64,000 nt of DNA from an uncultured Rickettsiales bacterium (GTDB taxonomy: Bacteria > Pseudomonadota > Alphaproteobacteria > Rs-D84). Made by a program: the position numbers and the translations under genes. Where the stretch lies: contig URBZ01000001.1 of the NCBI GenBank assembly GCA_900546225.1, positions 85,124 to 149,123 of the forward strand, given 5' to 3'. Below the pieces are notes generated by a model. That model was not told the origin of the DNA and ran no database searches. It saw nothing but the letters and a program-made list of their open reading frames with translations. Within the stretch, counting starts at the first letter, position 1, and each line of letters begins with the position of its first letter. Below are positions 4,927-27,300 of the stretch, piece by piece.

Positions 4927-5475
4927 TTATCGCAGTACACCGCGACGCATTGTTGGCCCGCGTCGTACCGCCGAACCGCGTGTTCCTGTTGTTGCATCAA
5001 CAGACATTGTACACACCCATTCGTCGTTCTGCAAAATTGCGGTCTGACCATCTGGGCAATCTGGCTTTTCCAAACGCCATGCAAAGCAACTGCCCTTTTG
5101 ATATGATTGATATGTCGCATTGTCCGCACCATCACGGGTATACGCACCATATTCAGGATTCCAAATGCCCGCCGCTTCGCCGCCACACCATTTGCGTGCA
5201 CCAAAGCAATCAATGCAATTTCCATCTTTGTCACAAATCTGATCCGGCGCAGCGGTCGAAACATATCCACTGTTTGCCGATTTCCCATCGCCCATCATTT
5301 TGCCGGTTTCCAAATCGCGACACCACAGCTTTTCACATTCCTGCGTCTTGACGCCATCGGTTGTGGTTGTGCGCGACGATAAAACATACCCCGCACCACA
5401 CGACGTGAACTTTGCCGCATCAGCCGCGCAAATCACGCCAACCAGCATTAAAAACGAGCAAATAATTTTTTTCAT
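4927..5475 (-). CDS. secreted cysteine-rich hypothetical protein
   Basis: Signal peptide. At least 12 Cys. Terminator hairpin directly downstream (4886-4925). Confidence 0.55.
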   Translation of the reverse strand: MKKIICSFLMLVGVICAADAAKFTSCGAGYVLSSRTTTTDGVKTQECEKLWCRDLETGKMMGDGKSANSGYVSTAAPDQICDKDGNCIDCFGARKWCGGEAAGIWNPEYGAYTRDGADNATYQSYQKGSCFAWRLEKPDCPDGQTAILQNDEWVCTMSVDATTGTRGSAVRRGPTMRRGVLR

Positions 5476-5970: not shown

Positions 5971-8900
5971 TTACCCCTCGCCGTTTTCTTTGGTTTGATT
6001 TGCCGCGTTCATCATTGCGAAATGCGCGATGTACTTTTTCAGTTCACTCTTGTACCGATTGTTTTCCTTGGCAAATTCAACCAATCTGTCAAAGTTCGGA
6101 TTTGCCGCGCGCGCCGCGCCGAAACGACTCTCGGTCTTCAAGAAATCTTCCAATGGCGTTGGATTATCAATATTTGAATCCAGCGTCAATGGATTGCGTC
6201 CCGCATCAATCAAGCGTGGGTCAAAACGATACAGTGGCCATGCACCGGTCTGAACCAGTTGCGTTTGGTGCTGAACCCCATTTTGCAATGCAAATCCATG
6301 CGCAATACATGGTGCATACGCCAGAATCACCGATGGGCCGGGGAAACTTTCGGCCTCGCGGAATGCGCGAATCGCCTGAACAGGATTCGCACCCAACGCG
6401 ATTTGCGCAACGTACGCGCCCGACATCATCGCCATCATACCCAAATCTTTCTTGGCATGTTCCTTGCCACCAATGGCAAATTTCATACTGGCGGCAAATG
6501 GGGTGGATTTAGATTGCTGGCCACCGGTATTCGAATACCCTTCGGTGTCCAGAACCAAAACATTCACATTTTCACCACTGTGCAAAATATGATCCAACCC
6601 ACCATATCCGATATCATATGCCCAACCATCACCGCCGACAATCCATACAGATTTGGTCACCATTTCGCCCAACAAACTTTCCGCCAATCGTGCACGCGGG
6701 CCATCTGTTTTCGCCAATTTTTTACGCAACATTTCTGCGTTTGCACGTTGACGCACAGGGTCTGTTTCTGCAAACATTGCGTCAACATTTGGAATATTCA
6801 ATTCAAACAGCAGGCCACGCAACGTGTCACGCTTTTGATTCAGTGCCAAACGCATACCCAAACCGTATTCCGCATTGTCTTCGAACAATGAATTAGACCA
6901 CGCCGGCCCGCGACCATTCGCATCACGTGTCCATGGCGTAGTTGGCAAATTCGCACCATAAATCGACGAACAACCCGTTGCATTCGCAACAACCATACGG
7001 TCACCAAACAGGTGCGCCATCATTTTCACATACGGCGTTTCGCCACAGCCCGCACATGCCCCTGGAAATTCAAAATAATGCGGCAACAGTTCGACATGCT
7101 TTGGAATATTCAAATTCAATTTTTCACGCGGGACATCTGGCAATTTCACAACCGCATCAAACGCGCGTTGGTTTTCCGCCGCAACATCGCGTGCCGGTTT
7201 CATCGCCAATGCCGCCACAGGACAGTTTTTAACGCACACACCACACCCTGTGCAGTCCGCCGCCGAAATCGCCAACGTGTAATACATGTCCGGCCCCAGT
7301 TCTGGCGTCTTCATCGGCACAACAATAACGCCCGCCGCACGCGCCGCGTCAACCTGTGCGGCACTCAGTGCCTTGATACGAATCGCCGCATGTGGGCACA
7401 GCATTGAACATTTGCCACACTGAATACATTTTTCCAAATCGCACGTTGCAACCCGATCAGACACCGCGCGTTTTTCATACTTTGACGTTCCAACCGGATA
7501 TTGACCCGCGCCAAATTCACCGCCCACGCGGAAACGCGATACAGGAATCGCATCACCACGCTGCGCCGCCATTTCACCCAACGTGCCCGCGATTTCCGCC
7601 GGCGCGTCCGCCGTCATTGCCGGCACAAAATCAGGTGCGAAATTCGACACAGACGACGGCAATACGTACTGGTGCAAATACTCGGCTGCCTTGTCCACCG
7701 CGGCCCAGTTTGCCTGAACAATTTCCATACCTTTTTTCTTGTACGTTTTTTCAATCGCAACCTTGGCCGATTTTGCCGCAACCGCCGGATCAATAATCTG
7801 GGTCAGGTTAAAGAAGTTCAACATGATAAACGTATTGATACGATTACCCAATCCCAATTCCGCCGCCGCGCCATTCGCGTCCAAGAAATACACATTCGCA
7901 CGCAGACGCAACAAATGTTCCTGTGTTTCACGTGGCAGATTTGCGAACGCAACATCGGGCGACATCGACGTATTTATCATAACCGTACCGCCCGCACGCA
8001 ACCCACGGAACACATCAAAGCGTTGCGCAATCATAAAGTTTGAAACACTGATAAAATCGGCAACCTCTATCAAATACTGACTTTTAATTGGCGCATCAGA
8101 AAAACGAACATGCGACGCGGTCAGCCCGCCCGATTTTTTCGAATCATATACCGCATACGACTGTGGATACAGGTCTGAATTTTCACCAACAATTTTTACA
8201 ATATTTTTAACCGCACCAACCGTACCATCAGAACCAATACCGTACAGAATCGCGGTCTTGAAATTTTCCGCCTGAACCGCGAACGCGGGGTCTGTTTTCA
8301 GGGACAATCCCGACAAATCATCATCAATACCAACCGTGAAATTGTGATGCAATGTGTCGCGCATCAGATTTTCATACACGGCCTTGACATCACGGGGCTT
8401 AAATTCTTTTGACCCCAAACCATACCGGCCACCAAATACCGCCGCCGCATCGCCAACAACGGTTTTAACGTCTTGGTACAACGGTTCACCAATCGCCCCA
8501 GGTTCTTTTGTTCTGTCCAGAACTGCAATACGTTTAACAGATTTCGGCAACGCCGCACGGAACGCATCGGTCGGGAACGGACGATACAAATGCACCTTGA
8601 TCAATCCCAAACCACGTGGCAAGAATGGCAAAGTTTCCTCTATCGTTTCGCACGCACTGCCCATTGCGACAATGACATTTTCGGCATTTGGGTCACCAAC
8701 ATAGTCCACCAAATGATACGCGCGCCCCGTCAGTTTTGCGAACTTGTCCATGCATTCCTGAACAATTTCTGGCGTCGCCGCGTACAGTGGATTGGCGGCC
8801 TCGCGTCCCTGAAAGTACACATCAGGATTTTGCGCCGTACCGCGAATCGTTGGTGCATCGGGTGTCATACCACGTGCACGATTTTCCAAAACCAAATCGT

Positions 8901-9483
8901 CCGGAATCATTTCACGCAACACATCATCGCTGATTCTGTCCAAACGGGATTCTTCGTGACTGGTGCGGAAACCATCAAAGAAATGCAAGAACGGCACACG
9001 TGCGCGCAACGTTGCCGCATGCGCGATTGCCGCCATATCAGACGCCTGTTGCACATTATGACTGGACAACAATGCGAACCCAGTACTGCGCACAGACATA
9101 ACATCACTGTGGTCGCCAAAGATTGACAACGCATGTGTTGCCAATGCGCGCGCCGCCACATGCATAACAAACGGTGTCTGTTCGCCGGCGATTTTGTACA
9201 TATTTGGAATCATCAGCAACAATCCCTGTGACGCGGTAAATGTTGTTGCCAGCGCGCCCATCTGCAACGCACCATGCATTGCGCCGGCCGCCCCGCCCTC
9301 GGACTGCATTTCAATAATCTGTGGAATTGCACCCCATATGTTTTTCTTGTGCTGGAACGACCATTCGTCCGCCAATTCACCCATAGTGCTGCTGGGGGTG
9401 ATGGGATAAATTGCGGCAAAGTCCACACATCTGTATGCGACGTCGGCCGCGGCCCAGTTTCCATCAACAATTAAATTCGCCAT
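5971..9483 (-). CDS. nifJ: pyruvate:ferredoxin (flavodoxin) oxidoreductase (PFOR/NifJ), single-polypeptide type
   Basis: 1170 aa. Two 4Fe-4S ferredoxin motifs (CIQCGKCSMLCP, CTGCGVCVKNCP). TPP-binding C-terminal region (GGDGWAYDIG). Confidence 0.95.
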   Translation of the reverse strand: MANLIVDGNWAAADVAYRCVDFAAIYPITPSSTMGELADEWSFQHKKNIWGAIPQIIEMQSEGGAAGAMHGALQMGALATTFTASQGLLLMIPNMYKIAGEQTPFVMHVAARALATHALSIFGDHSDVMSVRSTGFALLSSHNVQQASDMAAIAHAATLRARVPFLHFFDGFRTSHEESRLDRISDDVLREMIPDDLVLENRARGMTPDAPTIRGTAQNPDVYFQGREAANPLYAATPEIVQECMDKFAKLTGRAYHLVDYVGDPNAENVIVAMGSACETIEETLPFLPRGLGLIKVHLYRPFPTDAFRAALPKSVKRIAVLDRTKEPGAIGEPLYQDVKTVVGDAAAVFGGRYGLGSKEFKPRDVKAVYENLMRDTLHHNFTVGIDDDLSGLSLKTDPAFAVQAENFKTAILYGIGSDGTVGAVKNIVKIVGENSDLYPQSYAVYDSKKSGGLTASHVRFSDAPIKSQYLIEVADFISVSNFMIAQRFDVFRGLRAGGTVMINTSMSPDVAFANLPRETQEHLLRLRANVYFLDANGAAAELGLGNRINTFIMLNFFNLTQIIDPAVAAKSAKVAIEKTYKKKGMEIVQANWAAVDKAAEYLHQYVLPSSVSNFAPDFVPAMTADAPAEIAGTLGEMAAQRGDAIPVSRFRVGGEFGAGQYPVGTSKYEKRAVSDRVATCDLEKCIQCGKCSMLCPHAAIRIKALSAAQVDAARAAGVIVVPMKTPELGPDMYYTLAISAADCTGCGVCVKNCPVAALAMKPARDVAAENQRAFDAVVKLPDVPREKLNLNIPKHVELLPHYFEFPGACAGCGETPYVKMMAHLFGDRMVVANATGCSSIYGANLPTTPWTRDANGRGPAWSNSLFEDNAEYGLGMRLALNQKRDTLRGLLFELNIPNVDAMFAETDPVRQRANAEMLRKKLAKTDGPRARLAESLLGEMVTKSVWIVGGDGWAYDIGYGGLDHILHSGENVNVLVLDTEGYSNTGGQQSKSTPFAASMKFAIGGKEHAKKDLGMMAMMSGAYVAQIALGANPVQAIRAFREAESFPGPSVILAYAPCIAHGFALQNGVQHQTQLVQTGAWPLYRFDPRLIDAGRNPLTLDSNIDNPTPLEDFLKTESRFGAARAANPNFDRLVEFAKENNRYKSELKKYIAHFAMMNAANQTKENGEG

Positions 9484-9641
9484 GATACCTTTCCCTTGTG
9501 TACGTTTTTTGTTTTATTTCTGGCGAAATCATACCGCGATTTTTAATCCAAGGCAAGATTATACTTACATTTAACATTGACAAAATTCATATTTTGTATT
9601 ACACTACGTCCCCCAATATGAAGTTCAGAGAGGTATCGATT

Positions 9642-10142
9642 ATGAAAAACGGAAATATTATAGAGATTTGCCCAGGGTCGTTTCTGGACACAGCATTTGC
9701 CGGCGTTACGCCCGCAAAAACGGCAAACCCACTTGCACGCCATGACAACTTTGTCCGTGGCACTGACATTTATATTTTGGATTCATTTGCCAGCAAAACA
9801 AAAATGAAAAATGCCGCATTTGTACGCCGTATCAAGGACGCCATCGCCGATGCACGCGACGTTTTAAGTGGCGGCTTTATGGACGTAATTCCAACAAATT
9901 GGAAAATTGCACGCGATTGGAATCGCCCACATATTGACGTCTATGTAAATTGCCCAGACGCCACACTGACCGACAATGCGCGCGCCGCATTGGCCGAATT
10001 GGCACGCGCGGCCGCCGCGGGCGTAAAAATCACAGTACACGTCACCGGCAATCAAGCCAGCGCGATTGCACGTGCATTATTGGCAATGGAAAGATTCAGT
10101 GCCAACCGCACATTTCACAACACAACAACAAAACAGCGGTAA
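9642..10142 (+). CDS. hypothetical protein
   Basis: ORF with GAGG RBS before the ATG at 9642. Terminator at 10152-10185. Confidence 0.45.
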   Translation: MKNGNIIEICPGSFLDTAFAGVTPAKTANPLARHDNFVRGTDIYILDSFASKTKMKNAAFVRRIKDAIADARDVLSGGFMDVIPTNWKIARDWNRPHIDVYVNCPDATLTDNARAALAELARAAAAGVKITVHVTGNQASAIARALLAMERFSANRTFHNTTTKQR

Positions 10143-10151
10143 TAACCAGTG

Positions 10152-10185
10152 GCAATAAAAAAAACGGGGCAACGCCCCGTTTTTT
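10152..10185. terminator. bidirectional intrinsic terminator
   Basis: aaaaaaacggggcaacgccccgttttttatttc. Related to the terminators at 59321 and 61300. Confidence 0.7.
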
Positions 10186-11593
10186 ATTTCTTTTTATTTT
10201 CTAATTTTTTCAGTGTATCTGTCGCATCCGTGGGCTTTTCGTCCGATATACCGTCACACGTTGCCGCACGTGTTTTTAACTTTGACATCGCACGCACCAT
10301 GTCCATACCACGTTGCAACTGGTAATCTTGGGCATCTTTTTCTTCGTCAGACAATTCGACTTCTTCGTCATCATCGGACTTCTTGTCCGCTTTCTTTTTT
10401 GCGTTTTCATTCTTTAATGCGTTTTTGAAAGAGGCCTCTGAATATAAACTTTCGCGACGTTCAATGGTTTCAATCTTGCTCTGCAAAACCTCTACGTCTG
10501 GGGTAATCCCCTCGTTCTGAATAGACCGCCCACTGGGGGTATAATAACGTGCAATAGTAATATGAATCGCCGTGCCATCACCCAACGGTTTTTGCTGTTG
10601 CACACTGCCCTTGCCAAAACTTTGCGACCCCATAACCAACGCACGGCCATTGTCCTGTAATGCGCCCGCAACAATTTCAGACGCCGATGCCGAACCATGA
10701 TTTATCAGCACAACAATTGGTTTGCCGCCCGTCATATCGCCCGCTTTGGCCATGGCACGTTCAATATCCGCAGCATCTTTACCACGCGTTGACACAATTT
10801 CGCCACCATCCAGAACCGCATCTGCAATATCAATCGCCGCCGTCAGATACCCCCCAGGGTTATTGCGCACATCAATTACATAACCAATAACATTCTTTTT
10901 CTCCAACTTTTTAATCGCATTGCGAAACTCCTTGGCCGTGGTTGCGCCGAAATCAGAAATACGCACATAACCAATTTTTTCCTTTGAATTTTCGTCCATA
11001 TCCGCAATCGTCTTGTCGTCAAACTTGACGGACTTTACCTTGATAATTGCGCGTTTCAATGTAACATCGCGTGCGTCTTTGCCATCGGACAAGATGGTCA
11101 ACTTAACCTTTGTCCCCGGGCGACCTTTCATCTTTTTTACCGCCTGATTCAATGTCATATCAAAGACCATTTCGCCATCAATACTGGTAATATAGTCGCC
11201 GGCCTTGATACCTGCCTTGGCCGCAGGCGTATCGTCAATCGGCGAAATCACGCGAATTGCGCCACGGTCGCTGGTGACCTGAATGCCCAAACCACCAAAT
11301 TCACCATAAGATTTATCGTTAAATTCTTTCAAATCGTCCGCCGACAGATACGACGAATGTGGGTCAAGTGCGCCCAACATACCGTTCATTGCCGCTTCCA
11401 GCATTTTCTTTTCATCGGCCTCTTCGACAAAACTGTCGCGCGCGACATCAAACACCAGCGCAAATTTTTGCAACTGTTCATAAATCTGTTCATCGGTCAG
11501 GTGCACAACCGGTTCTTCTTTCTTTGCCTTGCCGGCGGCGATGGCCGTCATTGGCACAAATAACGCAACCAAGACCAAAAATTTCTTTAACAT
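10184..11593 (-). CDS. ctpA: C-terminal processing peptidase (S41, tail-specific protease) with PDZ domain
   Basis: PDZ region (GIKAGDYITSIDGE) and S41 catalytic region (VVLINHGSASASEIVAGALQD). Signal peptide from MLKKFLVLV. Confidence 0.9.
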   Translation of the reverse strand: MLKKFLVLVALFVPMTAIAAGKAKKEEPVVHLTDEQIYEQLQKFALVFDVARDSFVEEADEKKMLEAAMNGMLGALDPHSSYLSADDLKEFNDKSYGEFGGLGIQVTSDRGAIRVISPIDDTPAAKAGIKAGDYITSIDGEMVFDMTLNQAVKKMKGRPGTKVKLTILSDGKDARDVTLKRAIIKVKSVKFDDKTIADMDENSKEKIGYVRISDFGATTAKEFRNAIKKLEKKNVIGYVIDVRNNPGGYLTAAIDIADAVLDGGEIVSTRGKDAADIERAMAKAGDMTGGKPIVVLINHGSASASEIVAGALQDNGRALVMGSQSFGKGSVQQQKPLGDGTAIHITIARYYTPSGRSIQNEGITPDVEVLQSKIETIERRESLYSEASFKNALKNENAKKKADKKSDDDEEVELSDEEKDAQDYQLQRGMDMVRAMSKLKTRAATCDGISDEKPTDATDTLKKLENKKK

Positions 11594-11715
11594 TTTCGCT
11601 TTTCCCCTTGCCTTGTGATACAACAAAAACACCATATACCAAAAAAACCGCACTCGCAACACGATTTTTTGACTTTTTATACAGATTTTACCAATTTCAT
11701 CAACGCTACAATCAC

Positions 11716-11749
11716 TTGACAAAATAATTTTCTGTGCTATATTACCCGT
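11716..11749 (+). promoter_or_regulatory. sigma70-like promoter (TTGACA-16nt-TATATT) upstream of the Fic-like gene
   Basis: Near-consensus -35 and -10 hexamers read directly: ttgacaaaataattttctgtgctatatt. Confidence 0.5.
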
Positions 11750-11763
11750 ACATGGGTGACCAC

Positions 11764-12489
11764 ATGACAAAGACGCAAAATTATAAAATTCGTATCGAAG
11801 AAAACCGACAACAGATAACCAACATGTTATCTGGGGCGGACACGCACAAGCGGTTGAATAACATCAACTGGCTGCGTCACGAATTGTCATACACCGAACC
11901 GCGCACATTGTTTTACGTGCCGTCACGGGAACAGTTGCCCTATCTGGATTACAACAGTATGAAAAATCTGGGGACGGCATATGATTACATCATTGACAAC
12001 CCCGACACAATTATTGACATTCCTGAAATTTGCAAGTTGCACAGTATGTTATGCGCCGGCACACCGATTCAGGGCGGTCTGTTTCGCAACACGTCCAAGG
12101 TTTTGGAACTGTATGTCAACGGCAATCGCATTCATGCGCCCGAATCCACCGAGATTCCATCAAAACTGAACGAAATCGTGTACAAGTTCAATAATCAAAA
12201 CGAATGTACATTGATGCGCGCATTTAGCGCACACTATGACCTGATTATGTTACAGCCATTTGATGATTTTAACAAACGCACTGCGCGCCTGATTATGAAT
12301 TGGCTGCTGATTCAAGGCGGCTATCGCCCAATCGTGTTTAACCAGCGTACCGACAAACAGAAATACAAAGACGCCATCACCGCCAAGGCCGCCGGTGACA
12401 CGAAAAAATATACTCAATATATGTATTCATGCCTGTTGCGTACACAGAATGAAATAATCAACTTGTTAAAGAAATCGCGGGTGCTGTGA
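11764..12489 (+). CDS. Fic/Doc (Fido) family protein with degenerate catalytic motif
   Basis: Fic-fold region (GGLFRN...ESTEIPSKLNEIV). The motif position reads QPFDDFNKRTAR instead of HPFx(D/E)GNGRxxR. Confidence 0.7.
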   Translation: MTKTQNYKIRIEENRQQITNMLSGADTHKRLNNINWLRHELSYTEPRTLFYVPSREQLPYLDYNSMKNLGTAYDYIIDNPDTIIDIPEICKLHSMLCAGTPIQGGLFRNTSKVLELYVNGNRIHAPESTEIPSKLNEIVYKFNNQNECTLMRAFSAHYDLIMLQPFDDFNKRTARLIMNWLLIQGGYRPIVFNQRTDKQKYKDAITAKAAGDTKKYTQYMYSCLLRTQNEIINLLKKSRVL

Positions 12490-13409
12490 TGGTAAAAATA
12501 AAAACACTGAATCATGGTCGCGAAACATATGCCGTATATTACGGCGCAGATTTTGTGCTGAAACGCCCACTGCCGAACATGGGGCAAGTGGCCAAAGACG
12601 CATGGTTGGCCAAACAACACAAAACACAAATCGCCATTGATCGCATTCGCGCCGCAGACAACCCACTGTACAACGTGCCTGAAATGCGCTTTATCAATGA
12701 CGAAGAATATCAAATTCTGGAAGAGCGCGCCCCAGGTTACCCATTAAATCGTGATTTGTATCGCAAACTGTCACGTCGTCAGCGTTACGAAATAATAAAC
12801 AGTTTAGGCAGTTTTCTGGTCGACATGAACGAATCGATGCCTATTGGTGATGTTGAAAATCACAAAATCGCCAGCGAATTAAAATTCAGCCGTCTGGATA
12901 ACTTTATTGAAACCAAGATGTCAAATTGGTTCACAAAAAACGAGACAATCCAAATGGCGCGCATTCGTGACCAAATCGGCACATTTGAATACCCAACACG
13001 CATGGCGTGGTCACATTGCGACCTGAACCCAGGCAACGTTTTGTACGACCCCGAAACCAGTAAATTATCATTCATTGATTTCGCAGAGGCCGGATATCGC
13101 TTTATCTATCGCGACATATTTGCATCATTACAGATTGAATTGAATATATTCAAACAGGTCTATGAAGTATATTGCAAAATGCACGCGAAAAACCTGTGGT
13201 CTATGCCCAGCGCGAAAAATGACGCACTGCGCGACATTATGAAATACCGCATAATGGTTGTATGGTTGAAACGCTTTATCAAGGCAGCCGACGATTTGCG
13301 CCTTAACCCCAAAAACACCAAGAGCGAGAATAACAACCTAGAAAAGATTGCGTTTATGCGCGAACAACTGGTCAATTTTCAGAATCTGGAACGCCAGTTC
13401 CAAAAGTAA
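12489..13409 (+). CDS. aminoglycoside/choline-kinase-like phosphotransferase (protein-kinase-like fold)
   Basis: Catalytic loop HCDLNPGNVLYD, DFG-equivalent IDFAEAG, beta3 Lys in FVLKRP. Start overlaps the Fic-like stop (TGATG). Confidence 0.7.
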   Translation: MVKIKTLNHGRETYAVYYGADFVLKRPLPNMGQVAKDAWLAKQHKTQIAIDRIRAADNPLYNVPEMRFINDEEYQILEERAPGYPLNRDLYRKLSRRQRYEIINSLGSFLVDMNESMPIGDVENHKIASELKFSRLDNFIETKMSNWFTKNETIQMARIRDQIGTFEYPTRMAWSHCDLNPGNVLYDPETSKLSFIDFAEAGYRFIYRDIFASLQIELNIFKQVYEVYCKMHAKNLWSMPSAKNDALRDIMKYRIMVVWLKRFIKAADDLRLNPKNTKSENNNLEKIAFMREQLVNFQNLERQFQK

Positions 13410-13473
13410 AAGTTTCCCCCATCGCCCCCCCGCAAAATCTGACGATTTTGCAGGGTGGCACGGTGTGTTGGGA

Positions 13474-14991
13474 TTATTTCCAGTCATCGGGGATGTCGTT
13501 ATAATCTGACAGTTCTGTGGCATCGGTGTACATACCCCCAACATTGTCGGACGTTGCTGATGGGAACACATTATACAGGTATGTCCCATCTGGATTCCGT
13601 GCCGACGGCCCTGTCAGCCCACTGCAACCGCTAAATGTGTCAACGAACATGTAATCGGCTGGCTTGCCGGACAAGTCACCAAAGAAACCAAGTGGAATTT
13701 CGCCAGTCAGGTTTTCGCACCCTGCAAATGTCCCTTGAAACATACCGTCGGTTGGTGCCCCCTTTATTCCCGTAAACAGTCCTTCTGGTAAACTGGTCAG
13801 CTTTGTGTGGTTATAAAACGTCTGGTCAAAGTTTGGTTGGCTGCCATCTGCTAGGGTTGGGAATATTGCGCCCAAACTGCCTGATATTTTTTCCGTATGT
13901 TCGGCATAATCAAAACGAATTGCAGCATAACCATCAGAGTACGCGGTTGCTTTACCGCTGATTTTAATGGTGTATGTATCCTGATTGTAATAACCGTAAT
14001 CGTGCGTTATGTATTTTTCATCTGTATCGGTTTTGGTTATCGTTTCTATAATACCTCCATCGCCCCAGTCCACATAGAATTTTCCAGCGGCAGAGATGAT
14101 AATAGCAAACGAAGAGGTGTCACTTGTGGTAGTTATGGTAAATGTGGAATCTGTCACCTCTCCGTCCGGTGGGATGGGGCCAGTGTACGTACATGCCTTG
14201 CCGCCCCACGTTGATGGGATTGACGCGTTATCTTCCAAACACGTGCCGGTGTACATATCACCGACCTGTAATGATGTTGCCGACGAGAATGCATTATACA
14301 AATACGTGCCATCTGGGCTCCGTGCTGATTTACCGGTCAGACCACTGCACCCATTAAATGTATGGGTAAACATATTGTTTTGTAACGTACCAGATAAATT
14401 ACCAAATAACCCCAACGGTATCTCGCCCGTCAGACCGGAACAGCCCCTGAATGTGCCGCCAAACATACTGTATGCAGGCGCGCCAGACAGTTCGCCAAAC
14501 AATCCCGATGGAATTTCGCCTGTCAGACCACTGCATCCATTAAATGTGGCGTCAAACATATATGTAGCGGGTGCGCCAGTTATATTTCCAAACAGTCCAG
14601 ACGGTATTGAACCCGTCAAGCCGGAACAGCCCCTGAAAGTACCGCCAAACATGCTGGGCGCTGGTGCGCCAGACAGTTCGCCAAACAATCCCGATGGAAT
14701 TTCGCCCGTCAGACCAGTGCACCCATTAAACGTCCCGTCAAACATATATGCAGCAGGTGCGCCAGATATATTTCCAAACAGTCCTGACGGTATTGACCCC
14801 GTCAGACCGGAACTGCCCCTGAATGTGCTGGCAAACATATAGACCGCCGGCGCGCCAGAAATTCCTGAAAATAGTTTTTCTGGGATGCTGCCCGTCAGAT
14901 TGGTGCAGCCATAAAACGTACTACGAAAAATCGGACGACGTCCATTTACCGTTGGGAATATTTCACCCAAGCTGCCACTGATTTTTGCCAA
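13474..14991 (-). pseudogene. C-terminal fragment of a frameshifted PKD-like/LRR-like modular surface protein (continues 15032..16867)
   Basis: No signal peptide. Begins mid-repeat. The -1 frame upstream reads IGGRATGYASSYNESGAAISFKNNKNLAKISGSLGE, continuous with the upstream ORF. Confidence 0.6.
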
Positions 14992-15031
14992 GTTTTTATT
15001 ATTCTTAAAACTGATTGCGGCACCTGACTCA

Positions 15032-16867
15032 TTATAAGACGATGCGTACCCCGTTGCACGCCCACCAATGCCGCACGGCGTACGCGCCCGCCGTGGTGTA
15101 TGTATGACTGATGGTTTGATTAGTTGTATCGGTCTTTTCTATTTTCTGAAATGCACTGCCGTCGCCCCAGTTGACATAAAATTTCCCTGCCGCAGAAATA
15201 TTGAAACTGAAACTGCTGGTGTCACTGGTGGTGGTCAACTCAAACGGGTATTCCGGTTCTGGTTCAACATATGTGCATGTCGCCCCGCCCCACGTTGATG
15301 GTATCGATGCATTATCTTCCAAACACGTGCCAGTGTACATATGCCCCGTGTATGAGTTTGTGGTTGATGGGTACACTTCATACAAATATGTACCATCTGG
15401 GTTACGTGCGGACTTTCCATACAAGCCCTTGCACCCATAAAATGTATGATAAAACATTGTGGTGGCACGTTCACCCGACAAATTACCAAACAGCCCCAGT
15501 GGAATTTCCCCTGTCAGACCACTGCACCCCTCAAACGCCCATGCGTACATACTGCTGGCGGCTTCGCCCGAAATATTACCGAACAAGTTTGATGGGATTT
15601 CACCCGTCAAACCACTGCACCCATAGAACACATAGCGGAACATACTGCCCGCGGGCTCACCACGCAGATTGCCAAATAATCCAGATGGAATACTGCCCGT
15701 CAGACCACTGCAACCATAAAATACGCTGTTAAACATGCTGTTAGCCGGCGCACCCGACAGATTGCCAAACAGTCCAGATGGGATACCTGTCAGACCTTTG
15801 CAGTTGTAAAATGTGCTGTCGAACATGTCTTTGGCCGGCGCACCATACAGATTACCAAATAACCCAGATGGAATACTGCCCGTCAGACCACTGCAATCAT
15901 AAAATAAGCTTTTGAACATACCGATGGCTGGGGCACCAGATATACCAGCGAACAGATTTTCTGGGATGCTGCCCGTCAACCCAGTGCAACCGTTAAAGGT
16001 GTTGCTGAACATATAGCTCGCTGGCGTACCTTTTATTCCCGCAAACAAATTCTCTGGAATAGAGCCGGTTAATCTGCTGCACCCCAAAAACGTGCTGCTG
16101 AACATATTACTGACCGGTGCACCAGATATACCAGCGAACAGATTTTCTGGAATACTGCCCGTCAAAGTAGATCTGCCATAAAACGCCCTGTAAAACCTCG
16201 GTTGACTGCCATTCGCCAATGTTGGGAATATTGCACCCAAACTGCCCGAAATTCCGGTTAAATGTGAAGTTGATTCGAAACTGATTGCCGCGGTTGTGGC
16301 ACTGGTTGAATATTTCGTTGTCAGACCGCCGATTTTAATATCGTACGCGCCCGCTGTGGTGTATGTATGACTAATGTTTCGAGTGTTTGTATCGGTCTTG
16401 GTTATTGTTTCTACCGCGGTGCCATCGCCCCAGTCAACCCAAAATTCGCCCGCAGCAGAAATCTTGAAACTGAAACTGGTTGTATCACTGCTGGTGGTAG
16501 CAGTGAACGGGAATGTGCGCGGCTTTTTAATCAGGTTTTTAATTGCGTTGTCCACCGTTCGTTTGTTCACGGCGTATGACGTGGCATACGATGTGCCCGA
16601 ATATACCTTGGACGAACCGCCAATCTTTTTATTGGCAATATCAATCGCCGCCATCAGGTATTTCATATTCGCCGCAACCGATTTGTTCGTCAATGCCGAA
16701 TTATACCCCACAGAAACATTCCACTTTGCCAAAATCGCATCATGAATATATTTGACATTCACAACCGGCGACATTGTTGTGGGTTCTGCCACAGCAGCAG
16801 GCGCAACCGTCACATTCAATGCGACGATCATACACAGTAAAATTTTGAATACGCGGTGCAAACCCAT
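15032..16867 (-). CDS. secreted modular protein: PKD-like beta-sandwich domains plus roughly 33-aa LRR-like repeats (N-terminal part of a frameshifted gene)
   Basis: Signal peptide. WGDG..HTY..AG.Y motif occurs twice. Repeats of the form GxIPxxLFGxxSGAPAxxMFxxTFxGCSGLTG. Confidence 0.65.
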   Translation of the reverse strand: MGLHRVFKILLCMIVALNVTVAPAAVAEPTTMSPVVNVKYIHDAILAKWNVSVGYNSALTNKSVAANMKYLMAAIDIANKKIGGSSKVYSGTSYATSYAVNKRTVDNAIKNLIKKPRTFPFTATTSSDTTSFSFKISAAGEFWVDWGDGTAVETITKTDTNTRNISHTYTTAGAYDIKIGGLTTKYSTSATTAAISFESTSHLTGISGSLGAIFPTLANGSQPRFYRAFYGRSTLTGSIPENLFAGISGAPVSNMFSSTFLGCSRLTGSIPENLFAGIKGTPASYMFSNTFNGCTGLTGSIPENLFAGISGAPAIGMFKSLFYDCSGLTGSIPSGLFGNLYGAPAKDMFDSTFYNCKGLTGIPSGLFGNLSGAPANSMFNSVFYGCSGLTGSIPSGLFGNLRGEPAGSMFRYVFYGCSGLTGEIPSNLFGNISGEAASSMYAWAFEGCSGLTGEIPLGLFGNLSGERATTMFYHTFYGCKGLYGKSARNPDGTYLYEVYPSTTNSYTGHMYTGTCLEDNASIPSTWGGATCTYVEPEPEYPFELTTTSDTSSFSFNISAAGKFYVNWGDGSAFQKIEKTDTTNQTISHTYTTAGAYAVRHWWACNGVRIVL

Positions 16868-16875
16868 TGCCCCCT

Positions 16876-17268
16876 TTATTCCGTCGGCAACGGTTGGTCG
16901 GGCACAATCAGCGACCCAGAAACAGTATACTTGCCCGCCATAGTTTGCACCGCCGATGATGCTGTATCAACACGATTTGATACCGCCGAATAAACCGCAT
17001 GCGCCGATGGATACTGGGTATCGGTTGAACTGGATGAAATAGTGGTTGTTTTATTGGACGCGTTTTCCTTGGCATCAATGGACGCCGTCAACGTGGTCTT
17101 TAACGCATTTGTGATTGTGTTTACATAACTGACCGCAGCCAGTCCACCGGTTGTTGTGCTGGTGCCGCCGCCGGGCTCTGATACGGCGGCATTCACATTA
17201 CCAACAACGCCCCATATCATGAAAACAGCCAGTAAAAACAACAAGCGATGTTTCATAGTTTTTTGCAA
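16876..17268 (-). CDS. small secreted protein, paralog of 48580..49011
   Basis: Signal peptide. Conserved C-terminal block TQYPSAHAVYSAVSNRVDT...AGKYTVSGSLIVPDQPLP shared with the paralog. Confidence 0.5.
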   Translation of the reverse strand: MQKTMKHRLLFLLAVFMIWGVVGNVNAAVSEPGGGTSTTTGGLAAVSYVNTITNALKTTLTASIDAKENASNKTTTISSSSTDTQYPSAHAVYSAVSNRVDTASSAVQTMAGKYTVSGSLIVPDQPLPTE

Positions 17269-17381
17269 ATCCTACAATCTTCCGATGTCCATAATAATAC
17301 TTTATTTACACGTATCTCGTCAACAAGATTTATATTTTTTCGCCACATAAAAAGGCCCGTGCCATTCGGCGCGGCTCTACT

Positions 17382-17484
17382 CACTGGATTGCTTCGTCAT
17401 TTCATTCCTCGCAATGACAATGTTTCTAGGAAATTAGTATTTTTTGTCATTGCGAGCAAGCGCAGCGACGCGTGGCAATCCAGT
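17382..17484. repeat. nested palindromic element: inverted copy, ttctag centre, forward copy
   Basis: cactggattgcttcgtcatttcattcctcgcaatgaca ... tttctagg ... ttgtcattgcgagcaagcgcagcgacgcgtggcaatccagtg. The inverted half is the exact reverse complement of 61201-61237. Confidence 0.7.
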
Positions 17485-17559
17485 GAATAAAAATTGTCCG
17501 CCAACGGCGGACAATTTACTCTATCACTTTATCACTGAATCACTTTATCACTAATAGTA

Positions 17560-18630
17560 TTATTCTTCTTTGAACAATCGGGCGGGGTCAACCGCGGCGT
17601 CACCACGGCGAACCTCCAAATACATTTCTGGCCTGTCGGGGTTCATGCGTCCAATCGGTTCACCCGCCAAAACGTCCTGACCAACCATAACGTCAATATC
17701 CCCCAGATTGGTCATAACAGTATTATACCCATTTTTATGCGACATAATTACAACACGCCCAAACCCGCGGAAACTGTCGGCAAATTTAACCGTGCCGTCC
17801 GCCGGCGCAAGCACCAGCGCATCGCCACGCGTGCGAATGCGCCAACCATCTGATTTCAAACCCAGTGCGGTTTTTTCGCCAAAGTGCACCACCACGCGAC
17901 CACGCACCGGCTGATTCAATTTGCGATATGAAAAACGTGCATCACCTGACATTTGCGAACTCCCCACGCCGGCGGACAATTCAGAAATACTTTTTGCGCG
18001 CGCCGACAGTTCGCGCAATTTTTTTTGCAGGGCGGCCTGCTCGCTCTTTAACTGTTCGTTTTGCGCGGCACGCGTGCGCAGCAATTTATCTAGCTGGTTC
18101 TTTTCCGCCGCATATTTTTTCGCGGTGCGGTCTAATTTTTCCTTTTCAATCGCACGCGCATCGCGAATTTTCGCCAGTTCTTGGATTTGTTTGGTTGCAG
18201 TTTGAATCTGGTCATCAAATCGCGCCGCCGCCCCCGACAGCACCGCCGACGTCAAGACATACTCGCGCATATTGTCGGTATCAAAACTGGGGTGCGACGC
18301 CACAAATAAAATACTGGCCGCGGCATCAGAAATACGCGTCTGGTTTGCATCCAACGATTTTTGCAGTTTGTCACGCTGGGCATCCAGTTCTGCAATTTTG
18401 CGCGCAACCGCACCACGTTGTTCTTCCAAATTGCTGACCTGTTCGCCGGCGCGCACCAGTTTCTTTTTTGTGGACGCGACCTCGCGTTCAGAGGTCTGAA
18501 CCCGCTGGGTCAATTTTTTGTTTTGCTGTTTTGTTTGTTCGATTTGTGCATTGATACGCGACAGTTCACTGGTGGCGAACACAGGGCCCGTCGCCAATGC
18601 AATCATCAAAAACAGTACCAGTTTTTTCAT
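17560..18630 (-). CDS. M23/LytM-family peptidase with N-terminal coiled coil (EnvC-like)
   Basis: Signal peptide, long coiled coil, C-terminal M23 region (GRVVIMSHKNGYNTVMTNL). Confidence 0.85.
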   Translation of the reverse strand: MKKLVLFLMIALATGPVFATSELSRINAQIEQTKQQNKKLTQRVQTSEREVASTKKKLVRAGEQVSNLEEQRGAVARKIAELDAQRDKLQKSLDANQTRISDAAASILFVASHPSFDTDNMREYVLTSAVLSGAAARFDDQIQTATKQIQELAKIRDARAIEKEKLDRTAKKYAAEKNQLDKLLRTRAAQNEQLKSEQAALQKKLRELSARAKSISELSAGVGSSQMSGDARFSYRKLNQPVRGRVVVHFGEKTALGLKSDGWRIRTRGDALVLAPADGTVKFADSFRGFGRVVIMSHKNGYNTVMTNLGDIDVMVGQDVLAGEPIGRMNPDRPEMYLEVRRGDAAVDPARLFKEE

Positions 18631-24352: not shown

Positions 24353-27300
24353 ATGGCAACAAAACAGTACCGCAAAAATACCAAGAATCCAAAGCGTAAA
24401 TTGTTTTCCATACGCAAAATTGCGCTGGTCGCGTGCGCGATTGCAATTATCGCGGGCGCATTTGCATTTATCGCATTGCGTCGCGGTGACAATGCGGCAA
24501 CAAAAATGCACACGACATTTAACACCCCAACCGCGGCAACATTTACCGATACAAACAATGTAATGTTCACGTCTGACAATATTCCCGATGTGAACAATGC
24601 CCGCACGTTGGGCCGCATTCAGCCATTGGTTATTTCTTATAATTGGACGTCCGGCCCATATAATCAGGCCGTGCGCCCCGACGCAACAAACAATGACATC
24701 ACAGCCGGCACAAAAATCAGTCCATTTGTTCGTGGCACATGGACACTGCGCGGTGGTGGCGATGAATTGGCGTTCACACCCGACACCGATTGGCCCGCCG
24801 ACACGCGTTTCACTGTACGCGTTGCGGACAATCTGGTAAATTCAGACGTTGCGATTGACGATAAAACGATTTCTTTCACAACCCCGCGCATCACCGCCAC
24901 GGTGGACAGTTTCAACCTGTACCCTGCACCAAGTGCAAAGAAATCCGTAATTGGCGTTGCCGTTATATCATTTAATTACCCGATTATTACAACGGAATTT
25001 AACGATAAATTGACCGTCAAACTGGACGGGGCTAAATTGGACTTTACGGTAAAGTTTGATAAATTCCGTCGCACGGCCATAATCACAACCGCGCCGGTAC
25101 AAATCACCAATACCGACCAAATTATTCGCCTGAAATTAAACCGCGTTTCGCCCGCCGCTGGCAATGGCGCAACCCAGAAATTGACCGCGCACACAACCGT
25201 TGCCGCCGCTGATAACATATTCAAAGTATCTGAAATCACAACCACCGCGGCCGACGACAAAAACGGCAATGCGCAACAGTTGGTTCTGGTGAATATGACC
25301 GCCACCGCCGCGTCAAACACCGATTGGGGTAAATATGTTGAAATTTACCTGTTGCCTGAATACAAAACCGATGATGAAAAGTCAGACGAAACCCCACACC
25401 AATGGGCGGACGACGAAATCACCCCTGATGTGATTGCGCGCGCAAAAAAAATCCAAACAAAACTTGTCCCATTTGTAAATCCGACGGGCGTGTATCAATA
25501 CGCATTTTCATATGACGTGTCCGCTGCGAACAGATTTATTTTCGTGCGCGTTGCGTCCGGCTTTGAATCTGCGTCTGGCTTTTTTGTTAAAAATGGCGCG
25601 TCACGCGTTTTGTCCGTCGCATACCCTGTGCGCACGGTAAAAATCGCTGGCAGTGGCGCATTATTATCACTGGCGGGCGATAAAAAATTGGGCATTATGG
25701 CACGTGGTGGCGCAACCGCCGCATACGTGAATTTATCAAAGGTTAAATCATCTGAAATCAATCACTTGATTTCCCAGACATATAATATCTTTGCCGAAAA
25801 CATAGAATTTAAGGGCTGGTCATTTGGCGTTGACGATATGGCGGTTGTGTTCCGCAAAACAATTCCTTTTTCTGACCCGTCTATGACCAAAACCAATTAT
25901 GCGTCGATTGATTTGGGCGCATATCTGGACAGAACAGGTGTCGACAAAACCGGTATATTTGTAATTCAGGTCGCCCCCGACGCCACCGCCGCGCAGTACA
26001 GTGACCGTCGTCTGATTTTACTGACCAATTTAGGAATTATACGCAAGGAAAATCAAAACAATTCGTCCACTTTGTTTGTGGTAAATCTGTCTGATGGCAC
26101 GCCCGCCGCCGACACGGAAATAAACGTACTGGGACGCAATGGCAACGCCGTATGGGCGGGACGTACCGATGATGACGGCCACGCCGATATTCCTGAACTG
26201 TCATGGAACGAATATCGCGATGCGCGCGAACCCGTTGCGATTGTTGCGCGCCGTGGTGACGATGTTTCATTTATTCCATACAACGCAACCGCACCAATGG
26301 TTGATTATTCTAAATTTGATGTCGATGGCGAACATTATTATGGCGCAACACCACTGAACGCATTTGTCTTTACAGATCGCGGCATTTACCGCGCGGGCGA
26401 AGATATGGTTGCCGCCGGCATCGTAAAGAATAAATCGTTCAAGGCACTGGCTGGGATTCCTGTACGTGCCGAAATCACCGACCCACGCGGGCGCGACGCA
26501 TTGACAAAAACATTCACACTGGCGGGCGACGGAATGTTCGACATTAAATATACAATTCCCGCAACCGCCGCAACTGGCGAATGGCAGGTTCGCCTGTATT
26601 CATTGGACAATCGCGGGCGCATTGACACGTCACTGGGGGTGGCAACATTCCGCGTTGCGGACTTTGTCCCAGACAATATGAAAATCACCACCATCATCGC
26701 CGGTGGCGACACAGACGGTTGGATTGGGATTGATGGTATACGCGCGAATGTGTCCCTGCGTAATTTATTCGGCACCGCGGCAACGGACAAGCGTATTACA
26801 GCGTCTGCAACACTGACACCAACGAATTTTACATTTGATGCATTTCCTGATTACATATTCACACCAAACTTTATTTCGGGCACAGGTCTGGCCGATGGGA
26901 CGGCGCGCGCGTCCCAGACATTCACGGCAAATATGCCCGACGCGCACACCGATGAAAACGGCGCAGCAACAATTTCTATCAATTTTGACGATGTAATCCC
27001 AGATGGCACATATATGCTGAAACTGACAACCGCAGGATTTGAATCAGCATCGGGGCGCAGTGTTCGCACAACCACAACCGCACGCGTATCAAATGCAAAA
27101 TATCTGGTCGGATATCACGCCGATGGTGATTTGAAATACATCGCACGCGGGGCGTCGCGCAATGTCAAATTGGTTGCGGTTGACCACACGGGCGCGGTTG
27201 CGACGGCGGACAACCTGACCATTCGGACGGTACACCGCGAAAACCTGACCAGTTTGGTCAAGGATTACAGTGGATACTATAAATATCAAACCGTCACCCG

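Follow-up and report, generated by a model that had tools for sequence, protein, structure and literature searches.

A putative kinase operon with an exchangeable first gene, here encoding a Fic-fold protein with an altered active-site loop, in the gut alphaproteobacterial order Rs-D84

The window analysed here is a 64,000-nucleotide (nt) stretch from an uncultured Rickettsiales bacterium (GenBank assembly GCA_900546225.1, contig URBZ01000001.1, positions 85,124 to 149,123), in which a gene encoding a Fic-fold protein is directly followed by a gene encoding a kinase of the APH/choline-kinase fold (Table 1). Among related loci, the first of these genes is exchanged as a cassette between a conserved promoter and the kinase gene. 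The locus is tentatively read as a conserved kinase operon whose first-gene slot is swappable; the slot here holds a Fic variant that would not AMPylate, and the two proteins would be co-expressed but separable. The Fic-kinase pairing itself is of interest as a lead, but is not proven to be a two-part system.

Table 1 Features of the Fic-kinase locus and its flanks (positions within the window)
Feature	Position	Strand	Details and basis
ctpA-like gene, S41 C-terminal processing protease (left anchor)	10184–11593	−	Open reading frame (ORF); start MLKKFLV assigned from homologues
Sigma-70-type promoter	11716–11743	+	−35 TTGACA 11716–11721, 16-nt spacer, TG 11735–11736, −10 TATATT 11738–11743
Fic-fold gene	11752–12489	+	245 amino acids (aa) from ATG 11752; 241 aa from ATG 11764
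Predicted beta-hairpin flap, residues 117–128	12100–12135	+	AlphaFold2 strands 117–122 and 125–128; hypervariable central part
Non-canonical Fic active-site loop QPFDDFNKRTAR	12253–12288	+	Canonical form HPFx[D/E]GNGRxxR
TGATG stop/start overlap of Fic and kinase genes	12487–12491	+	Sequence
APH/choline-kinase-fold kinase gene, 306 aa	12489–13409	+	Pfam APH and Choline_kinase, AlphaFold2 model
Lys25 codon (FVLKRP), presumed ATP-binding beta3 lysine	12561–12563	+	Invariant in alignment; function presumed
Catalytic loop HCDLNPGN (HxDxxxxN)	13014–13037	+	H176, D178 and N183 invariant
Metal-binding segment IDFAEAG (DFG equivalent)	13074–13094	+	I196, D197, F198, A199 and E200 invariant
Stable hairpin	13415–13473		Occupies the space from the kinase gene to the convergent gene for a surface protein; probable bidirectional terminator
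Island of repeat-rich surface proteins	13474–17256	−	ORFs; variable, absent or replaced in relatives
M23 (EnvC-like) peptidase gene (right anchor), then tyrS, tsf, rpsB	17560–18630	−	ORF and related loci

The kinase is found in 136 species-level genomes, and the arrangement of its neighbours was counted in the best 80 of these loci. A Fic gene lies directly upstream on the same strand in 58, separated by −11 to +33 nt and mostly by 1–5 nt, and lies downstream of the kinase gene in convergent orientation in seven and on the same strand in one. Loci without a Fic gene carry either an unrelated ORF of ~350 aa in the upstream slot (8/80) or the kinase gene alone (6/80; loci L022, L059, L062, L072, L073 and L082). 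Scanning conversely from Fic, the Fic gene is found alone between ctpA and the M23 peptidase gene in at least six metagenome contigs (L105, L106, L107, L120, L123 and L127). Within the lineage, the pairing is frequent but optional, and as all loci come from one order-level lineage, the co-occurrence largely reflects shared ancestry. A first-pass annotation of this DNA, made from the letters alone, had proposed a search for conserved Fic-kinase neighbourhoods and had considered a toxin/antitoxin-like or effector/regulator pair, or a system in which the kinase could supply the lost chemistry; the neighbourhood does recur, while a toxin/antitoxin-like or otherwise obligate link is not supported, as each gene also occurs alone at the same locus, the 350-aa gene can replace Fic, and the Fic and kinase phylogenies are discordant. 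Its impression that the pairing is not a described system agrees with our literature searches, in which no description was found.

Other arrangements have also been observed. In one, the kinase gene lies downstream of tyrS and the 350-aa gene stands opposite ctpA. In loci L136–L138, two tandem APH-fold paralogues (308 and 299 aa, ~29% identical) take part in a tyrS-M23-APH-APH-ctpA operon on one strand with no Fic gene (at ~4069–5900 in L136). Finally, a distant kinase homologue (36% identity) is located at 322–1215 in L134/L135, flanked by rpsP and by the C-terminal end of a PBP1A-like gene. Next to the setting with M23 and ctpA, the PBP1A-like context is a second peptidoglycan-related neighbourhood of the kinase family, which may be a hint to the substrate or a coincidence.

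The exchange of the first gene can be seen most directly by comparing L055, which carries the 350-aa gene, with L070, which carries Fic: sequence identity of the two loci is 91% until ~30 nt ahead of the first gene's start and again from the kinase start codon onward, with nothing that aligns in the middle. The Fic and 350-aa states of the slot are interleaved among kinases that are 85–94% identical. Fic alleles vary in a similar way, as kinases 95% identical can pair with Fic proteins only 38% identical, and Fic proteins 87% identical can pair with kinases 67–75% identical. Across the loci, pairwise identities of the two proteins correlate weakly (Spearman 0.32), and co-evolution of Fic and kinase is not seen in this comparison. 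The kinase of L113 is 99% identical to that of the window, whereas the Fic proteins are 58–60% identical. Aligned with window positions 7736–13638, L113 forms a nucleotide mosaic, in which PFOR is ~86% identical, ctpA, the promoter and the kinase gene are 95–99% identical, and the Fic body (11786–12385) is 49–71% identical. Such a recently shared 3-kb tract with a different Fic allele points to recombination between Candidatus Enterousia lineages at the locus.

The 350-aa gene is found upstream of the kinase in L040, L048, L049, L053, L055, L065, L071 and L078, and also at 5001–6059 in L139. Its product has no match in Pfam, NCBIfam, PADLOC or the Protein Data Bank (PDB), and all 60 of its homologues are hypothetical proteins from this one lineage. 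Two motifs are conserved, ILILGGENT and FTHCHG(T/A)YVL, the second of which resembles a nucleophile elbow with cysteine. The −10 hexamer ends ~7 nt before the ATG of this gene, and its mRNA may for this reason be leaderless.

The promoter that delimits the slot matches the consensus at 11 of 12 positions, carries the extended −10 TG one base 5' of the −10 hexamer, and is the best of 11 promoter-like sites within positions 10000–15000. Shuffled sequence gives a mean of 8.4 such sites against these 11, and the count alone is not significant. Instead, the promoter is convincing because it is conserved across orthologous loci: 52 of 59 loci have a site matching at least 11/12 at a distance of 18–40 nt 5' of the Fic start, compared with 3 of 400 random 200-nt windows. 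It is retained even where the Fic proteins are only 28–45% identical, and both the alternative 350-aa cassette and the kinase-only loci are preceded by the same promoter as the Fic loci. The TTGACA-16-TATATT promoter of the first-pass annotation is thus present in sequence, although it ends at 11743, six bases earlier than the 11749 given there. As the −10 hexamer ends at 11743, the in-frame ATG at 11752 would stand 2 nt after the expected transcription start, and the transcript may be nearly leaderless. The second ATG, at 11764, is preceded by GGTGA and is the start common to most homologues, which share the N-terminus MTK(T/S)P (MTKT in the window). No credible Rfam match to a riboswitch or leader RNA was found within 9400–17600, and the leader is at most ~14 nt long.

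At the junction of the two genes, the Fic stop TGA (12487–12489) shares one base with the kinase ATG at 12489, in agreement with the overlap reported earlier. This TGATG is little evidence of function, as such junctions are ordinary in this compact genome: 13 of the 33 same-strand junctions of the window span 12 nt or less and 7 overlap, M23/tyrS being among these. Translational coupling was for this reason discounted as functional evidence. The 64-nt gap that follows the kinase stop folds at −27.9 kcal/mol (z = −3.9), and none of 200 shuffles is as stable; the hairpin lacks a clear U-tract and probably serves as a bidirectional terminator, as judged from its predicted fold. With the conserved promoter, the TGATG junction and the terminal hairpin, the Fic and kinase genes appear to form one bounded, constitutively promoted two-gene unit, and the bicistron proposed in the first pass can be retained. 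No second copy of either gene is present within the window.

The Fic-fold protein matches the Pfam Fic family (PF02661) with E = 5.6e-13 and 50 bits against a cut-off of 24. A PDB profile search with the Fic family identifies metazoan FICD as the best solved-structure relative (4e-20), and the AlphaFold2 model (predicted local distance difference test, pLDDT, 90.2) is likewise matched to FICD by Foldseek with a template modelling (TM) score of 0.76 and a probability of 1.00. The model displays the class II helix order, with an N-terminal helix ahead of the core, the active-site loop between helices 4 and 5, and the flap between helices 2 and 3, as in the Fic superfamily. The GxxR ahead of the flap is conserved. 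For the inhibitory motif (S/T)xxxE(G/N), no exact copy is found in the protein, while an invariant Glu49 lies in an S-x-x-E (LSYTEP) at the end of the N-terminal helix (residues 31–53).

In canonical Fic proteins, the motif HPFx(D/E)GNGRxxR provides the histidine as general base (PMC8401265). In the HMMER alignment, the loop QPFDDFNKRTAR of the protein described here faces HPFIDGNGRTSR of FICD: the catalytic His is replaced by Gln, the first Gly by Phe and the second Gly by a Doc-like Lys, while the Asp, the Asn and both Arg are retained. The AMPylating motif HxFx(D/E)GNGRxxR with its catalytic His is absent from QPFDDFNKRTAR, and AMPylation chemistry is not expected because of this alteration. 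In Doc, a Lys at the second Gly position makes the protein bind ATP inverted and act as a kinase (PMC8401265). The Gln motif is present in ~110 of 120 Fic homologues and His in 2, and the form QPF[DE]D[FY]NKRT[AS]R persists down to 28% identity, including in kinase-linked Fic partners 28–38% identical. The loop and the following helix (residues 165–194) have the lowest column entropy of the protein (0.4–0.9 bits), whereas variability is greatest in the flap and the central helices (1.8–2.3 bits). Among close relatives, the ratio of nonsynonymous to synonymous substitution rates (dN/dS) of the Fic gene is 0.08–0.11, indicating strong purifying selection. The protein had initially been called a degenerate Fido protein; the catalytic His and both Gly are indeed lost, but the word is misleading, because the altered active-site loop is the best conserved part of the protein. 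The motif appears re-tooled rather than that of a decaying pseudo-enzyme.

A minority Fic subclade keeps the His (HPFDDYNKRTSR) together with the Doc-like NKR (L099, L101, L109, L124 and L141; proteins P0229 and P0237). These His-type copies are either convergent to a kinase gene, whose product is 50–53% identical, or located in contexts without a kinase, an unrelated one among them, and the subclade may represent the ancestral state.

The kinase passes the Pfam cut-offs of both APH (PF01636; 5.6e-10, 39.8 bits vs 23.2) and Choline_kinase (PF01633; 2.4e-7, 30.8 bits vs 29), and the APH match begins at residue 4. Residues K25, H176, D178, N183 and D197 are invariant in a 29-sequence alignment, and the HxDxxxxN loop together with IDF is found in 119 of 120 homologues; judged by these retained residues, the kinase seems catalytically intact. 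The APH/choline-kinase fold with HCDLNPGN and IDFAEAG, recognised in the first pass, could thus be located and supported. The gene is under strong purifying selection (dN/dS 0.065–0.09 among close relatives), and the family is narrow: a profile search of 1.84 billion cluster representatives yields 210 proteins at E ≤ 1e-3, of which 24 reach E ≤ 1e-30. The AlphaFold2 model (pLDDT 88.0) has a C-terminal helical lobe, and its best Foldseek matches are APH(2'')-IVa/Ia, AmiN and Cph, at a TM score of ~0.5 and 13–16% identity. The best sequence match in the PDB is APH(2'')-Ia (2e-5), and no similarity to sugar, choline or homoserine kinases of the PDB was found even at E ≤ 10. The match to TCAD9 of the ternary conflict systems (PF19974) scores 24.9 bits, below the cut-off of 40, and is limited to the catalytic-loop region (170–218).

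It could be argued that the kinase confers resistance to an antibiotic or toxin of the aminoglycoside, amicoumacin or capreomycin type and that the Fic gene beside it is unrelated. Antibiotic kinases make up all of the top structural neighbours and also the best PDB sequence match, and some sources name the homologues "aminoglycoside phosphotransferase family protein". Yet, the similarity is low in both identity and fold, no NCBIfam family matches, resistance models included, apart from a spurious hit (0.13), and no relative is present on 72,556 plasmids. Moreover, the gene is lineage-wide and vertically inherited at one chromosomal site of an uncultured gut symbiont lineage, making this explanation highly improbable. 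A standard antibiotic phosphotransferase, which the first-pass annotation had named as the finding that would speak against a Fic-kinase system, was accordingly not found, and a standard antibiotic kinase was set aside as unlikely on the grounds of the low identity to APH(2''), the lack of an NCBIfam match and the absence from plasmids.

In the preferred reading of a kinase operon with a swappable slot, the kinase would be inherited mostly vertically and would remain in the ctpA / M23-peptidase / tyrS neighbourhood, as in every arrangement seen, while the slot between the conserved promoter and the kinase would here be filled by a FICD-like protein with a re-tooled loop. This protein would presumably no longer AMPylate hydroxyl groups. 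Its retained phosphate-binding loop (Asp/Asn/Lys/Arg/Arg) and peptide-docking flap would instead bind or act on a phosphate-bearing ligand or a base-independent target, and its target-docking surface would diversify through allele exchange. The kinase would phosphorylate a substrate that is probably a small molecule, since its nearest folds are small-molecule kinases. A small-molecule substrate suggested by the kinase fold and a protein target suggested by the Fic flap point to separate functions better than to a shared pathway. The data would allow a direct biochemical coupling, with priming by the kinase and action of the Fic protein on the resulting phosphate, but do not call for it, and the one link that can be named for the two is co-expression, as predicted from the gene arrangement. 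The unit is read neither as a toxin-antitoxin module nor as a mobile element or a known resistance gene.

Several points weigh against this reading. Fic and kinase are adjacent in 66 of the 80 loci, with a conserved close spacing and one promoter in common; this would ordinarily be taken as a sign of a real functional link, and the coupling may be underrated. The arrangement counts cover the best 80 loci of a larger set, and on contigs of metagenome-assembled genomes (MAGs) a partner that seems to be missing could lie elsewhere in the genome. The phosphate-binding role proposed for the Gln-Lys-Arg loop is deduced from motif logic, and the pocket might simply be closed by the bulky Phe/Tyr that stands in place of the first Gly.

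As the main rival, a two-step modification can be considered: a substrate would first be phosphorylated by the kinase, and the Fic-fold protein would then attach a nucleotide or some other group to the phosphate, or else read or remove it. Under this model, His could become Gln because a phosphate nucleophile needs no general base, and a concrete version would be a salvage pair resembling AmgK/MurU (kinase and nucleotidyl transferase) for scavenged cell-wall amino sugars. Such a system explains both the loss of the base, with the loop Asp, Asn, Lys and Arg retained, and the frequent coupling behind one conserved promoter, seen in the 58 loci with Fic directly 5' of the kinase; it is also in line with the strong purifying selection on both genes, with the recurrence of the kinase beside the peptidoglycan enzymes M23 and CtpA and the PBP1A-like C-terminus of L134, and with the lack of upper glycolysis and many biosynthetic pathways in Rs-D84, which makes salvage plausible. 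It fits poorly, however, with cassette replacement and single-gene loci, as either gene can stand alone, an unrelated orphan gene takes the place of Fic in close relatives, and the histories of the two genes are discordant. In addition, a hypervariable, recombining flap would be unusual for a metabolic enzyme, and the kinase has neither detectable similarity to PDB sugar or choline kinases nor an NCBIfam match. Overall, the two-step model is regarded as unlikely.

A broader view, which is distinctly unlikely, could nevertheless be speculated: the kinase and its interchangeable first gene may form a modular modification system of reduced-genome symbionts, in which the kinase would write a phosphate and the partners, either a Gln-Lys-Arg Fic protein with phosphate chemistry or a Cys-hydrolase-like orphan, would act on the phosphorylated target, the alleles being polymorphic through an arms race with a host, a partner cell or phages.

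Allele shuffling, cassette replacement and a hypervariable island next door also resemble defence hot spots, and a reverse transcriptase is encoded in the same island of L004. This raises the question of a conflict system (phage defence, abortive infection or a type VII-like toxin-antitoxin), with the variable first gene as effector and the kinase as sensor, regulator or neutraliser. The Fic protein matches the PADLOC candidate-defence models PDC-S04 at 3.5e-18 (profile positions 65–223 of 234) and SoFic at 7e-12; these models have no curated cut-offs, and a Fic domain of any kind may score on them. SoFic itself is toxic, and its neutraliser is encoded downstream (PMC12249575). PDC-S04, however, has never been verified, and one native-host test was negative. 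The catalytic His is absent in nearly all members of the Fic family, Fic without kinase and kinase without Fic both occur, and no small antitoxin or DNA-binding gene lies beside the pair in the window. One conserved kinase is also unlikely to neutralise two unrelated effectors. Furthermore, the kinase has no PADLOC match and no plasmid relative, no relatives were found on viral contigs, the chromosomal position is fixed beside housekeeping genes, and Enterousia carries few known defence systems. A conflict system is on balance quite improbable.

Two simpler candidates were tried and rejected. With regard to type II toxin-antitoxin systems, neither an obligate pair nor a mobile, plasmid, phage or island location is found, and a toxin-antitoxin pair was dismissed since each gene is also met on its own, a small antitoxin is absent, the Fic protein has lost its catalytic His and the locus has a fixed place in the chromosome. 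A mobile or phage-borne element was likewise dismissed: no mobile genes flank the pair, no relatives were found on viral contigs, and among the plasmids searched there is no kinase relative and the Fic relatives are at most 33% identical.

The Fic-kinase unit is specific to the gut alphaproteobacterial order Rs-D84 (Candidatus Enterousia), and the loci most similar to it belong to uncultured Rickettsiales UMGS1180, to Candidatus Enterousia species and to alphaproteobacterial gut MAGs. Enterousia belongs to Rs-D84 and has genomes of ~0.75–1.0 Mb; the order lacks most biosynthetic pathways as well as upper glycolysis and is thought to depend on other cells (PMC12306168). Given a lineage that appears partner-dependent, the two proteins could be delivered effectors, a diversifying FICD-like Fic protein and a eukaryote-like kinase that manipulate a partner or host cell of the reduced-genome bacterium. 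The closest solved-structure relatives of the Fic protein being metazoan FICD, the adjacent island encoding variable surface proteins, and the combination of a conserved core with a variable target dock, which parallels the Bartonella Bep effectors (PMC8401265), are consistent with this idea. Still, inspection of the locus revealed neither a secretion signal nor a delivery domain nor a secretion-system gene, and neither protein has an extra domain, both N-termini being short and conserved, so that delivery is very unlikely.

The gene order at the locus is PFOR, a small ORF, ctpA (divergent), Fic, kinase, the variable island, the M23 peptidase gene, tyrS, tsf and rpsB, and it is kept in strains with an identical Fic protein and in a genome whose Fic protein is 52% identical. 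For ctpA, Pfam matches to CtpB_N-like, PDZ and Peptidase_S41 were seen in the identical loci L001–L003. The small ORF between PFOR and ctpA (174 aa, 9618–10142, + strand) has no NCBIfam match, its counterpart in L001–L003 has no Pfam match, and a ClpP-family gene occupies its position in L004 and L139. The island proteins are probably located at the surface and contain ~24-aa units such as GCSGLTGSIPSGLFGNxSGAPA, with PARCEL-repeat and PamR-like matches below cut-offs. The island is absent in L003, different in L001 and replaced in L004 by other genes, of which the reverse transcriptase is possibly part of a diversity-generating retroelement. Further to the right, within 24353–30082 (+ strand), a 1909-aa ORF is the counterpart of an alpha-2-macroglobulin-like protein of L003 (MG2, A2M and bMG domains) and is followed by a 798-aa ORF with an overlap of 14 nt. 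Enterousia-type loci with the typical synteny also occur in records labelled Bacteroides fragilis, Muribaculaceae and Lachnospiraceae (L008, L072 and L073; P0061 and P0442), for which contamination during MAG binning is the likeliest explanation.

While Fic enzymes are defined by their catalytic histidine, a lineage-wide family here carries Gln and a Doc-like Lys in a loop that is its most conserved part, making the Gln-NKR Fic family a good entry point to an undescribed Fic activity. The locus is also an unusually clean natural experiment, as a conserved promoter and an orphan kinase flank a first gene that is exchanged among close relatives. Genes that are retained and polymorphic in probably cell-dependent organisms with less than 1 Mb of DNA likely matter for survival or for the interaction with a partner. 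If the modular-modification idea were true, it would assign Fic proteins of the His-to-Gln "NKR" class their first function; should the two proteins prove independent, what remains is a pair of orphan enzymes that share a promoter in a compact genome. Either way, the locus combines known kinds anew, namely a Gln-Lys-Arg Fic family and an orphan APH-fold kinase in a cassette-slot operon.

Among known systems, the Fic protein is closest to FICD/HYPE, the class II Fic AMPylase/deAMPylase of metazoa, and to bacterial class II Fic proteins (SoFic, BT_2513), with which it shares the best profile and fold match, the helix order, the flap, the GxxR and both Arg. It differs from them in having QPFDDFNKRTAR in place of HPFxDGNGRxxR, and in lacking TPR or other extra domains and an exact (S/T)xxxE(G/N). 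With the Doc toxin of phage P1, it shares the Lys-Arg at the second Gly position. However, Doc is a flap-less protein of ~126 aa with the antitoxin Phd, whereas the Fic protein described here has 241–245 aa, a flap and the final Arg, and its neighbours are ctpA and a 306-aa kinase gene, with no small antitoxin ORF. Of the Doc motif HxFx(D/N)(A/G)NKR, the NKR is present, while His is replaced by Gln and Ala/Gly by Phe, and the Doc model TIGR01550 scores 17.9 bits against a cut-off of 38.65. Doc clade D2, whose single-domain Doc-like proteins follow the consensus Qx[F/Y]x[D/E][G/V]NKR, was recorded in an earlier survey and is uncharacterised (Khater and Mohanty 2015; PMC4454073). Compared by this published consensus, the clade has the same His-to-Gln change and NKR, so that Q, F, D and NKR match; position 6 is Phe/Tyr/Cys here rather than Gly/Val (across Doc and D2, the first Gly position holds Gly/Val/Ala), and the protein described here is FICD-like in size and fold. 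The Bartonella Beps resemble it in their conserved fold and loop conformation, altered motif and variable flap or target dock, and one of them, BepC, has no known catalysis and acts by target binding (PMC8401265). The Beps differ in their BID delivery domain, their FicTA origin and their retained PFxxGN, whereas the present protein has neither such a domain nor such an origin and changes both Gly. The kinase shares with APH(2'')-IVa/Ia, AmiN and Cph the HxDxxxxN loop, the Mg-binding Asp, the beta3 Lys and the C-terminal helical lobe, and is set apart by its distance in sequence and fold, its chromosomal, lineage-wide distribution and the lack of a match to resistance hidden Markov models. Finally, SoFic-AS1, FicTA and Phd-Doc likewise place a Fic-fold gene and an immediate second gene in one operon, yet theirs combine a small neutraliser with an active toxin, whereas the operon described here combines a 306-aa enzyme with a Fic protein without the catalytic His, either gene being absent from some loci.

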